Source of the DNA: a virus
Taxonomy: Duplodnaviria > Heunggongvirae > Uroviricota > Caudoviricetes
Length of the DNA stretch: 14,514 nucleotides
Direction: 5' to 3' (one strand)
IMG/VR virus record: IMGVR_UViG_2713896799_000019
Shown: positions 10,296 to 12,988 of the stretch, piece by piece
How positions within the stretch are numbered: position 1 is the first letter of the stretch
Layout: each line of letters starts with the position of its first letter
Position numbers and translations under genes: made by a program
Notes under the pieces: generated by a model
The model's database searches: none
The model's input: only the letters and a program-made list of their open reading frames with translations
Told to the model about the DNA's origin: nothing

Positions 10296-12386
10296 ATGGC
10301 AGTAAAGATTTCAGGTGTCCTGAAGGACGGAGCGGGTGAGCCTGTCGTAAACTGTGCGATTGAATTGCGTGCCAGAAGAACCAGTCCGACAGTTGTGGTT
10401 AATATTGTGGCAACCTGTCTTACGGGAAGTGATGGCGGGTATACTATTAATGCTGAGCCGGGATTTTATGATGTATTTTTGTCCCGCTCAGGGCATCCTC
10501 CTGTAAAGGCGGGGGAAATTTATGTTGCACCGACAGATGAGCCGGATACGCTGAATGCTTTTCTGGATGCACCAAAGGAGGGTGATTTACGCCCTGAGGT
10601 AATGAAGCGTTTTGAGGAAATGATAAATACCGTTGTTCGCTTGTCTGAGCAGGTGGTCAGTGACAGGGAGAGAGCAGAAACAGCTGCTGATGATGCAATC
10701 AATGCAGCAACATCTGCGGCGGTTAGTAAGGATGAGGCAGAAGAGCTAAAAAATCAGACACAGCAGAGCGCCGAAGCTGCAGCCGGAAACGCACAGCAGA
10801 CGGCACAGGATGTGACGACAACCGCAACGGCCCGTGATGATGCGGAACGTTTTGCGGGTGAGGCAGAAAACAGCGCACAGTCATCAGGCACAGCGCGGGA
10901 CGAATCAGTCGATGCCGCCGAACGCGCCCGCCTTTATCATAATGCCGCATCATCAGCAGCGACCAGTTCAGAACTGTCGGCAAATGCGGCGCTGGGGCAC
11001 AAAAACAGTGCCGCCGAATACGCCCGACAGGCTAAAGCCAGCCAGGATGCAGGTGCAGACAATGCGCAGGAAGCGAAACAGTACAGGGATGAGGCGCAGC
11101 AGATAGTTGATGACCTGAATGCAACAAATGCCAGCACGACAGAAAAAGGTCTGGTGCAACTGTGTAGTGATACGGACAACGACAGCGATGAACTGGCTGC
11201 CACGCCAAAGGCTGTCAAAGCCGTCATGGACGAAACGAAAACAAAAGCGCCACTGGACAGCCCGGCCTTCACCGGCACCCCAACCACCCCAACCCCACCG
11301 GATGATGCCGCCGGTCTGGAAGCAGCGAACGCAGCGTTTGTGCGCAAACTGCTTGCTGCGCTGGTTGGCTCATCGCCGGAAGTTCTGGACACCCTGAACG
11401 AGCTGGCAGCGGCGCTGGGCAATGACCCGAACTTTGCGACGACAATCACAAACGCGCTGGCAGGCAAACAACCGCTTAATGACGTCTTAACGGCAATCAG
11501 CGCACTGACGCAACGGGCAGATAATCTTCTGTACTTCAATACGGACGGGAATGCCTCACTGTCTCCGCTGTCAGAGAAGGCCCGCGCATTACTGGCGCAT
11601 GACACGGCTGAAGCCATGCGCACGGAGCTTGAGCTGAACGCGGCTGCGACGATGGAACCCCAGAGTGATATCCGTGACCGCACACCGGGCAGGCTGGCCC
11701 TGTCCGGGATGTATGGGTTTGGACAGGCATTCACCAGCGCCGAAGCTCTGTCATTTAACGGACAGGCTGATTTCGTTATATGGCTGCAGACAGTCACCCC
11801 GGGGCGTTATGCGGTCAGTATTGCGGACTCCTCCACGCTGCTGGTGGGCACCACGAAATTTAACGGTATCATTGATGTGATGTGGTCACCCTCTGATAAC
11901 GATGGTTCAGACTCAGCGCGTAAATTCAAAACGCTGCTGTACTACAACCAGTATTACGAGGATGAGCACAGCATACATTGTATGCGTTATCGCTACAGTG
12001 GTAACAGCTGGAATGCAACATCAAGCCTTATTGTGTATGACGGCAACTCCCTGGCATATCTGATGTCCTCAACCGCCGGTAATGGTCCGTTCTCATATTA
12101 CCAATACCCGGCCGTCGGTGTGCCGATTATGGCGGTATATCAGGGAGAAAGTTTTGGTGAAAATGCTTCTCTGGGACTCGGTGATACTGTGCCGGGTTCC
12201 CGTCTTGGTCCTCTGGCCATGAGTGCACAGGTTAGTGATACAGGGACATACGCATCCTCACCGCAGGTTGTGATTGGCGGTGCCGGTGAATACAACTTCC
12301 CCGGTCGTTACAAGGCGCTTTCGGGCCTGGGTAACAATTATGGTACTCAGCGTGGCTTTATCGGTCTTTTTGTACGCATTGAGTAA
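10296..12386 (+). CDS. stf: Side tail fibre protein (Stf-like), mosaic
   Basis: The N-terminus MAVKISGVLKDG...CAIELRARRTSPTVVVN matches the lambda Stf tail-attachment domain. It is followed by an Ala/Ser/Glu-rich low-complexity shaft, the tail-fibre motif GLVQLCSDTDNDSDELAATPKAVKAVMD, an SPAFTGTPTTPTPP segment and a C-terminal domain of about 250 aa that I do not recognise. Confidence 0.85.
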   Translation: MAVKISGVLKDGAGEPVVNCAIELRARRTSPTVVVNIVATCLTGSDGGYTINAEPGFYDVFLSRSGHPPVKAGEIYVAPTDEPDTLNAFLDAPKEGDLRPEVMKRFEEMINTVVRLSEQVVSDRERAETAADDAINAATSAAVSKDEAEELKNQTQQSAEAAAGNAQQTAQDVTTTATARDDAERFAGEAENSAQSSGTARDESVDAAERARLYHNAASSAATSSELSANAALGHKNSAAEYARQAKASQDAGADNAQEAKQYRDEAQQIVDDLNATNASTTEKGLVQLCSDTDNDSDELAATPKAVKAVMDETKTKAPLDSPAFTGTPTTPTPPDDAAGLEAANAAFVRKLLAALVGSSPEVLDTLNELAAALGNDPNFATTITNALAGKQPLNDVLTAISALTQRADNLLYFNTDGNASLSPLSEKARALLAHDTAEAMRTELELNAAATMEPQSDIRDRTPGRLALSGMYGFGQAFTSAEALSFNGQADFVIWLQTVTPGRYAVSIADSSTLLVGTTKFNGIIDVMWSPSDNDGSDSARKFKTLLYYNQYYEDEHSIHCMRYRYSGNSWNATSSLIVYDGNSLAYLMSSTAGNGPFSYYQYPAVGVPIMAVYQGESFGENASLGLGDTVPGSRLGPLAMSAQVSDTGTYASSPQVVIGGAGEYNFPGRYKALSGLGNNYGTQRGFIGLFVRIE

Positions 12387-12400
12387 TGAGGAAATCAGGC

Positions 12401-12988
12401 ATGAAAATCAGAGCGGTGAAAGGTATCAGAAACGCACATTATCTTGAAAATGGTGCGATTGACTGCGAGGTGTTATTTGAAGGTGAAACGGAGTTCGCCC
12501 TGTATACTGCCATACAGGATGATATGGCCCCGACAGGCCAGCATGTCTGGCAGGAGCTGCAAAGCGGGAAATGGGGCGAAATCGCCCCGTTCACTGTCAC
12601 GCCTGAACTTATTGCAGCGGCAAAGGATGCCAAAAGGCGGGAAATTGAGGCATGGCGCGACAGTCAGGAAAACGTTGAGTTTATTTTCACGTTTGATGGC
12701 CGTCGTTTTGATGGCGGAAAAACCTCGCAGTCACGCCTTGCCCCCGTGGTTGCAACAGCGCAGGCCGGACTGCTTCCGGATGGTTTTTTCTGGACTGATG
12801 CGGATAATAACAACGTCGTACTGACCAGGGAGAAACTTATTGCGCTGAACGATGCCATGATGGTGGCCATGGTGGCGGAGGGCTTTAAAATCCACGAACG
12901 TCAGCGCGAGATGAAGGAACAACTGAATAATCTGGATGATTTACGCTCAATCAGAGAGATGGCGATTAGCGGCAATCACTCTCGATAA
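12401..12988 (+). CDS. Tail-fibre-associated protein, a putative tail fibre assembly/chaperone protein of non-lambda type (possibly DUF4376-like)
   Basis: 195 aa ORF directly downstream of stf, with RBS GAGGAA 7 nt upstream of ATG 12401. MKIRAVKGIRNAHYLENGAIDCEVLFEGE... resembles prophage tail-fibre accessory proteins but not lambda Tfa. The function is inferred from position. Confidence 0.6.
   Translation: MKIRAVKGIRNAHYLENGAIDCEVLFEGETEFALYTAIQDDMAPTGQHVWQELQSGKWGEIAPFTVTPELIAAAKDAKRREIEAWRDSQENVEFIFTFDGRRFDGGKTSQSRLAPVVATAQAGLLPDGFFWTDADNNNVVLTREKLIALNDAMMVAMVAEGFKIHERQREMKEQLNNLDDLRSIREMAISGNHSR

Follow-up and report, generated by a model that had tools for sequence, protein, structure and literature searches.

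The side tail fibre gene and its lambda-type chassis

The gene pair considered here occupies positions 10296-12988 of a 14,514-nucleotide (nt) stretch of viral DNA (IMG/VR record IMGVR_UViG_2713896799_000019; Caudoviricetes), which is called the window in the following and in which, at its whole length, all coordinates are counted. The window comprises the tail half of a lambdoid Escherichia coli prophage, with an intact operon in the order H-M-L-K-I-J-lom-stf-partner, where stf encodes the side tail fibre and the partner is the small gene directly 3' of it. Our overall picture, with the mechanism included, is that of a probable chimeric side fibre, in which a lambda-type chassis carries a non-lambda tip and is served by a helper of the DUF4376 class. 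The features of the two genes are as follows, with Stf residues counted in amino acids (aa) and partner residues numbered by the listed 200-aa open reading frame (ORF) from 12386, in which the start at 12401 is residue 6.

10296-12386, plus strand: stf, side tail fibre gene, 696 aa (ATG at 10296, TAA at 12384-12386; phrog_2636)
10296-10568, plus strand: Stf aa 1-91, collar (tail-attachment) domain (PF08400, PDB 9e7m/9mgh, identity to lambda)
10599-11243, plus strand: Stf aa 102-316, Ala/Ser/Glu-rich proximal coiled-coil shaft (from composition; putative limits, taken from the lambda model)
11133-11252, plus strand: Phage_fiber_2 motif, Stf aa 280-319 (GLVQL...ATPKAVKAVMDETKTKA; PF03406, E 5.7e-14)
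11244-11639, plus strand: Stf aa 317-448, hinge (317-345) and distal coiled coil (346-448), homologous to lambda Stf 394-525
11640-12383, plus strand: Stf aa 449-696, exchanged tip, presumed receptor-binding domain, ending in the family-wide ...LFVRIE
12401-12988, plus strand: partner, predicted DUF4376-type tail-fibre chaperone, 195 aa and stop (PF14301, phrog_1141)
12401-12601, plus strand: partner N-terminal domain, ORF aa 6-72, presumed tip-docking adaptor (three beta-strands and a helix in the AlphaFold2 (AF2) model)
12617-12934, plus strand: partner DUF4376 domain, ORF aa 78-183, helical body with a short beta-hairpin at aa 99-110
12671-12898, plus strand: partner central segment, allele-specific, ORF aa ~96-171, between the shared blocks 12419-12670 and 12899-13100

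The laboratory lambda stf is frameshifted, and for the comparison the 774-aa Ur-lambda Stf was rebuilt from orf-401, the intervening frame and orf-314. Stf of the window matches phrog_2636 over its full length (E 4.5e-176), and its N-terminus is of lambda type, as a sequence-only reading of the window had noticed before: the Pfam family phage_tail_N (PF08400) covers aa 1-134 (E 3.3e-40), aa 1-115 are 53% identical to lambda Stf, and the structure of Ur-lambda Stf 1-94 (PDB 9e7m/9mgh) is matched with an E value of 4e-21. That reading had also limited the match with lambda Stf to roughly the first 110 aa, which is an undercount, because aa 239-437 align without gaps to Ur-lambda Stf 316-514 (199 aa, 51% identity, E 1e-48). 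Altogether, about 45% of Stf is lambda-like. The alignment ends at aa 437 and nothing is aligned beyond it.

Between the two aligned parts lies a proximal shaft that is 77 aa shorter than that of lambda and of which, within aa 102-316, only aa 239-316 align. The earlier description of the shaft as Ala/Ser/Glu-rich agrees with its composition (27% Ala, 10% Ser and 10% Glu in aa 116-270), and the conserved fibre motif that had been noted corresponds to Phage_fiber_2, which is 56% identical to that of lambda. In the model of Ur-lambda Stf, the proximal coiled coil (102-393) is followed by the hinge (394-422), the distal coiled coil (423-525) and then the receptor-binding domain (PMC12617516), and the putative domain limits of Stf were placed by shifting these limits by a constant offset of 77 residues. 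Based on this correspondence, Stf would keep the lambda collar and hinge, the last part of the proximal shaft and practically all of the distal coiled coil, and the departures would be the shorter Ala-rich shaft stretch at aa 116-238 and everything after aa ~437-448.

It is also observed that the hinge/distal coiled-coil block is carried twice by the fibres of 1033-1046 aa in E. coli W (1857-4997 of its locus) and in Rac-SA53 tail3, where the window segments 11029-11663 and 11247-12659 match two separate places in the same gene. This suggests an internal duplication of the shaft module in those two fibres.

The exact Stf sequence is present at NCBI as WP_052934295.1, named 'prophage tail fiber N-terminal domain-containing protein', and the exact partner sequence occurs on 45 contigs under the name 'DUF4376 domain-containing protein'. 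The 90% clusters of Stf and of the partner have ~600 members each, and among 5426 complete E. coli genomes there are 20 that contain the intact pair (~98% identity). In a near-identity DNA search of the phage collection, the whole pair was found in no sequenced phage record, with only the conserved middle block being matched.

The exchanged tip and its DUF4376 partner

The mosaic was obtained from DNA comparison with ten loci that carry related fibres. The block 11029-11638 (Stf aa 245-447) has 82-85% DNA identity to the fibres of Rac-SA53, pPE4 and SerU-LTIIb, the tips of which are just 27-35% identical in protein to the tip of the window, and in three comparisons the DNA similarity stops at 11638 (aa 447). 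In the tip itself (11639-12386), DNA similarity of ~79-83% is found only to loci of the E. coli W, C311, UMNF18 and W13-16 type. Further downstream, the 5' part of the partner gene (12419-12670) is 75-80% identical to the enterobacterial prophage loci compared, with none detected to Av-05, the middle part (12671-12898) has no DNA match in any other locus compared, and the 3' end together with the DNA downstream of it (12899-13100) is 94.6% identical to other ompW-site prophages. Since the break at aa 447 corresponds to lambda 524 and the distal coiled coil of lambda extends to 525, the genetic junction coincides, to within one residue, with the structural domain boundary. The swap point is at aa ~437-448, equivalent to lambda 514-525, i.e., the boundary between the shaft and the receptor-binding domain. 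Such a block pattern is the outcome that would be expected of a cassette exchange by homologous recombination between conserved arms, and it is from this pattern that we infer the event itself.

For the tip beyond this point (residues 447-696) nothing is matched in Pfam even at E<=10, NCBIfam gives no match to Stf or to the partner, searches of the PDB by sequence and by profile match only the collar and the shaft of Stf, and a solved structure was found neither for the tip nor for the partner. The last ~250 aa contain no HxH motif and 2 His, versus 8 HxH and 16 His in Ur-lambda, in agreement with the earlier observation that the C-terminal domain of this size is without His-rich repeats. The family of the tip is small, with 97 relatives at E<=1e-3 in an exhaustive HMMER scan of 1.84 billion cluster representatives, and in nearly all of them the domain is at the extreme C-terminus of proteins of 256-1302 aa. 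Relatives at 54-80% identity are from E. coli and Salmonella prophages, and at ~31% identity the domain is present on fibres of the PF12571 (P2/Mu) type and on Vequintavirinae fibres, so that one tip family is joined to N-termini of the PF08400 and PF12571 types alike. The stretches that are most conserved in the family are the neck QSDIRDRTPG (aa 456-465) and the C-terminal strand LFVR(I/V). In the literature, including that on PF14301/IPR025484 and on phiP27 tail fibre receptors, receptor information was found neither for members of the tip family nor for the partner.

With regard to naming, homologues of the tip (11604-12383) appear at NCBI in dozens of partial records as 'shikimate transporter, partial' and in one as 'phage portal protein', and the tip pseudogene of UMNF18 carries the name 'shikimate transporter' in RefSeq too. 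The 'shikimate transporter' name looks like a propagated misannotation.

The partner gene begins 14 nt after stf. Another ATG, at 12386 and overlapping the stf stop by one base, was considered as its start and rejected: because of the spacing of GAGGA (12388-12392) to the ATG at 12401 as a Shine-Dalgarno sequence, the start chosen in RefSeq and the N-termini of all homologues, the protein is most likely of 195 aa from 12401. It matches phrog_1141 (E 1.7e-81), and PF14301 (DUF4376) is found in aa 78-183 with 70.7 bits against a cut-off of 25 (E 1.6e-19), the isolated C-terminal half giving 68.3 bits, while the first 76 residues have no Pfam match. The previous statement that the partner is not like lambda Tfa is confirmed in several ways: BLASTP against lambda Tfa finds nothing, the partner does not match PF02413 (Caudo_TAP) even at E<=10, for which the lambda Tfa control scores 147.6 bits, and no Caudo_TAP gene is present anywhere in the window. 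The remote relationship of DUF4376 to Caudo_TAP that PMC7882524 implies is rejected by the profile-profile comparison (hhalign), in which the probability is 0.35%. The check by remote homology that had been proposed for residues 450-696 and for the partner has thus given a divided answer, with the tip being without family or structure and the partner belonging to the DUF4376 class, which is a known kind of chaperone.

In the AF2 model of the partner (predicted local distance difference test score 86), the N-terminal domain would consist of strands 11-19, 25-31 and 38-42 and helix 49-59, and the body of helices 73-94, 112-126 and 148-181 with the hairpin 99-110. These predicted elements agree with the published description of V22-type chaperones, the comparison being one by description only. 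A likeness to the intramolecular chaperone domains of K1F (3GW6) and T5 (4UW8) was not reproduced for this fold.

The tip and the partner travel together. The DUF4376 gene is directly 3' of the tip family in all 13 loci with a visible neighbourhood, including those with tips 31-37% identical to that of the window, which together with the sharp break at 11638 in three comparisons supports the exchanged host-range module proposed from the sequence. In five of those prophages (phiP27, C311, pPE4 and the P0090/P0075 loci) there is a separate upstream fibre with its own Caudo_TAP gene. Since the DUF4376-paired and the Caudo_TAP-paired fibres are thus present in the same prophages, DUF4376 and Caudo_TAP should not be taken as two names for one type of chaperone. 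The tip and the partner form a conserved two-gene cassette, which also occurs on fibres of phiP27-like, baseplate-carrying prophages of myovirus type and on Vequintavirinae fibres.

It is noted that the phiP27-like, baseplate-carrying (myovirus-type) prophages possess tandem fibre/chaperone sets of different types (L003, L004, L008, L012, L014 and L016), in which a fibre with a lambda-type N-terminus or of P2 type, with the tip and the DUF4376 gene, stands directly after the Caudo_TAP-paired fibre.

Within the cassette, the two halves of the partner behave differently. Among 12 non-redundant tip/partner pairs, the identity of the partner N-domain tracks that of the tip (Mantel test, Spearman rho 0.51, p 0.006), and for the DUF4376 half there is no correlation with tip identity (rho 0.04, p 0.31). 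The following identities to the proteins of the window illustrate this.

E. coli W: tip 72%, partner N-domain 87%, partner C-domain 47%
Rac-SA53: tip 35%, partner N-domain 64%, partner C-domain 45%
Av-05: tip 31%, partner N-domain 48%, partner C-domain 29%

This fits a helper of two parts, in which an N-terminal adaptor would be matched to the tip and a generic DUF4376 core would serve for trimerisation. The C-domain (aa 73-200) of the window partner is 45-56% identical to other enterobacterial prophage partners, which are themselves 59-89% identical to one another whatever the tip, and the core in the window is thus an outlier allele. The partner of the virulent phage Av-05 has a C-domain that is a second outlier, with 27-33% identity.

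In Actinobacillus phage vB_Apl-pPE4 (PP818812.1), with Actinobacillus pleuropneumoniae as the recorded host, the pair closely matches that of E. coli phage phiP27 (tip 98%, partner N-domain ~91% identical), and its shaft block has 84% DNA identity to the window prophage. The host assignment or the provenance of this record deserves a check.

Known fibre systems, interpretation and alternatives

The system closest to the window in its chassis is Ur-lambda Stf with Tfa, which has the same slot after J and lom, a homologous collar (53%), hinge and distal coiled coil (51%), an Ala-rich coiled-coil shaft and a small helper gene directly 3', but which differs in the shaft being longer by 77 aa, in an unrelated tip with HxH/gp37-like repeats and in a helper of the Caudo_TAP family. 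Mu S/U and P2 H/G likewise have a fibre and a downstream chaperone with tip-specific pairing, and Mu S gives a weak match to the Phage_fiber_2 region of the window (5yvq, E 2.4e-5), while their chaperones are Caudo_TAP. By contrast, the pairs of phiP27 (L56/L57), Rac-SA53 (tail3/tail4), SerU-LTIIb (stf/stf2) and Av-05 (gp76/gp77) resemble the window in the cassette: the tip is 27-35% identical over the whole domain with the LFVRI end shared, the partners are 35-57% identical, and the adjacency is alike. They differ in that the tip of the window is strongly diverged from theirs, its nearest alleles being those of E. coli W/C311-type prophages (71-76%), and in that the centre of the partner is distinct. 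A published receptor was found for none of these four pairs. A well-characterised tip/chaperone pair with a known receptor to which the cassette of the window might belong, which the sequence-only reading had named as the finding that would speak against it, was also looked for, and none was found.

For the function of DUF4376 proteins, the precedents are the Alteromonas phage pairs V22 gp26/gp27 and A5 gp8/gp9 and a Campylobacter prophage. V22 gp27 is needed for a functional fibre, co-purifies weakly with it and readily parts from it on size-exclusion chromatography, and the authors state that co-expression of the chaperone yields functional fibres (PMC7289586, PMC10579305). A5 gp9 binds its fibre more stably, yet it is dispensable for folding, and A5 gp8 binds host cells with or without the co-expressed chaperone (PMC7289586, PMC10579305). 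Because A5 gp9 stays bound but is dispensable, the authors propose a transient cap role, and they also note that TfaMu stays bound to the Mu fibre; in their prediction, three chaperone strands extend a beta-sheet of the fibre head (PMC7289586, PMC10579305). The H-fibre of Campylobacter CJIE1 works only when the downstream DUF4376 gene is co-expressed (PMC7882524). The V22 and A5 pairs are like the pair of the window in the matching place of PF14301 (78-183 of 200 in the window versus 92-184 of 195 in gp27), in similar size, in the fibre-then-DUF4376 order and in a cassette that crosses phage morphotypes. They are unlike it in having unrelated fibre bodies and different hosts and receptors, and sequence similarity is undetectable by tblastn, which from the partner does not reach the Alteromonas phages.

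Based on these data, the following pathway can be proposed. The cassette would have entered by homologous recombination, with the hinge/distal coiled-coil block at aa 245-447 as the upstream arm and the conserved parts of the partner gene as the downstream arm. After synthesis, three Stf chains would trimerise from the C-terminal tip, aided by a DUF4376 trimer, the N-terminal beta-domain of the partner docking on the tip and the helical DUF4376 body forming the trimeric core. The DUF4376 protein would then leave or remain as a loosely bound cap. The collar would fix the Stf trimers, of which a virion of the lambda type would carry four, at the gpV/gpM junction, as expected from the lambda Stf collar, which binds the gpV/gpM ring where the tail tube meets the tip (PMC12617516). 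The mature tip may then make the first, reversible contact with a surface receptor, making adsorption faster before J engages its own receptor. The lambda Stf receptor is OmpC (PMC12617516), and as the OmpC-binding domain of lambda Stf is absent here, recognition of OmpC in the manner of lambda is not expected.

Several points weigh against this proposal. The co-variation comes from 12 pairs, and linkage alone could explain it, because the partner N-domain physically adjoins the tip. The chaperone role is carried over from very distant DUF4376 proteins, and we infer the folding, trimerisation and binding steps of the fibre by the same kind of analogy. The tip model is of only moderate confidence and is a monomer of a presumed intertwined trimer. 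Finally, expression of stf is assumed, with a terminator-like hairpin standing just 5' of it.

The last point bears directly on a different explanation, namely that the prophage is decaying and its fibre genes are only carried along, giving no functional fibre, as in laboratory lambda. The element is indeed a prophage at the ompW-yciE junction, lambda PaPa lost Stf by frameshift (PMC12617516), and related loci are degraded, with the tips of UMNF18 and W13-16 being truncated pseudogenes fused beside terminase or portal fragments. On the other hand, every tail gene between H and the partner, these two included, is an intact ORF in the window, and the persistence of the intact pair at ~98% identity in the 20 complete genomes, together with the two 90% clusters of ~600 members, is not what would be expected of decaying genes. 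Moreover, stf of the window differs from that of E. coli GB089 in 10 synonymous and 10 non-synonymous codons, and since non-synonymous sites are about three times as numerous, equal counts suggest constraint on the gene. We therefore hold decay to be quite unlikely. It is still more improbable, to the point that we give it hardly any weight, that the tip is an enzyme acting on surface polysaccharide (a depolymerase or esterase) and not a simple binding knob, because no catalytic family of Pfam or NCBIfam is found even at E<=10 and 250 aa is small for a beta-helix depolymerase.

The alternative that comes nearest to the chaperone interpretation is that the partner stays on the fibre tip in the virion, where, like T2 gp38 or TfaMu, it would serve as an adhesin or as a structural cap. 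It would then contribute to receptor recognition or gate it, and the host range would be set by the pair. The stable binding of the dispensable A5 gp9 and the retention of TfaMu on the Mu fibre would agree with this, as would the name 'tail fiber protein' that PHROGs and several GenBank records give to the partner, and the divergence of the central DUF4376 segment (45-56% versus 59-89%) is as an exposed surface under selection would show. Yet V22 gp27 separates readily, A5 gp8 binds cells regardless of the chaperone, it is with the N-domain of the partner, and not with its divergent core, that tip identity co-varies, and the helical-hairpin body, as modelled, would resemble chaperone-like scaffolds and not known adhesin folds. 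A retained partner of this kind is thus unlikely, in our estimate, while being less so than the two alternatives above.

A reading that joins the tip and the core can also be put forward, with a similarly low expectation of its being right: the tip would be a fold without a solved relative, its receptor would be new among characterised coliphages, and the divergent core of the partner would be a second, independently exchangeable element of specificity. In the same reading the partner would be a mosaic of three blocks, with an N-domain that docks on the tip, a DUF4376 core particular to the allele and a 3' end that is conserved. If this is true, the core could act, for example, as a retained cap that gates or extends recognition, and the host range would be encoded by two proteins.

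Whether a lambdoid phage, or a delivery particle based on lambda, adsorbs quickly to a given strain is decided by its side-fibre tips. For the preferred interpretation of a chimeric fibre with a DUF4376 chaperone, the consequence is a practical one. A natural graft point has been mapped, where an unrelated tip sits on a lambda-type shaft at aa 437-448 (lambda 514-525), and as this tip family travels with a DUF4376 helper and not with Tfa, moving the tip would require moving the helper gene too, with the N-terminal domain of the helper hinted as the tip-specific part. The general view of fibre function is not changed by this; its use is in fibre engineering. It was already known that tail fibres are mosaic with matched chaperones, the DUF4376 chaperone class has been known since 2020, and both proteins are catalogued under generic RefSeq names. 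The particular contribution of this locus lies in its uncharacterised tip family, in a natural graft point that is well resolved and in evidence of a modular helper.

The prophage setting

The other features of the window that have been referred to above, or that flank the pair, are as follows.

835-3456: H
5864-9565: J, 1233 aa versus 1132 in lambda
9632-10231: lom
10258-10279, plus strand: terminator-like GC hairpin between lom and stf, with an 8-bp stem of which 7 pairs are GC, followed by a T-run TTTTTGTGGG
12993-13015, strand-neutral: hairpin common to the convergent partner (plus) and antirepressor (minus) genes
13025-13636, minus strand: ORF6N/Rha-type antirepressor gene (PF10543, phrog_2379), convergent with the partner gene
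14236-14514, minus strand: yciE, beyond a truncated ompW remnant

The hairpin between lom and stf ends 16 nt 5' of the stf start, and being terminator-like it implies that stf and the partner would need read-through or antitermination of late transcription. Because the right end (13025-14514) contains the truncated ompW and yciE, the prophage occupies the ompW-yciE site, which is also used by the UMNF18 and the Stx2e W13-16 prophages.

The window is ~91% identical to lambdoid phages over 8-10330 and 95.8% identical to the prophage of E. coli GB089 over 1005-12971. At the left end, over ~850 bp (8-848, containing the G/T genes and the very start of H), the identity to the GB089 prophage is only 76%, which marks a further mosaic junction near position 1000. 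Within J, aa 1-849 are 93% identical to lambda J; a ~90-aa insert then precedes aa 941-1232, which are only 56% identical to lambda J 840-1131, and the GC content falls from ~0.60 to ~0.48-0.50 across 8001-9500. The receptor-binding end of the central fibre J (8400-9565) also looks exchanged, and to have called the side-fibre cassette a second exchanged module was therefore fair.

Finally, an antisense ORF of 286 aa (10937-11797, minus strand) is present inside the Ala-rich shaft of stf. It was considered as a gene and set aside, as it is probably a by-product of GCN-rich codon periodicity in the Ala-rich shaft; its parallel in lambda is the annotated orf206b, which is antisense to orf-401.

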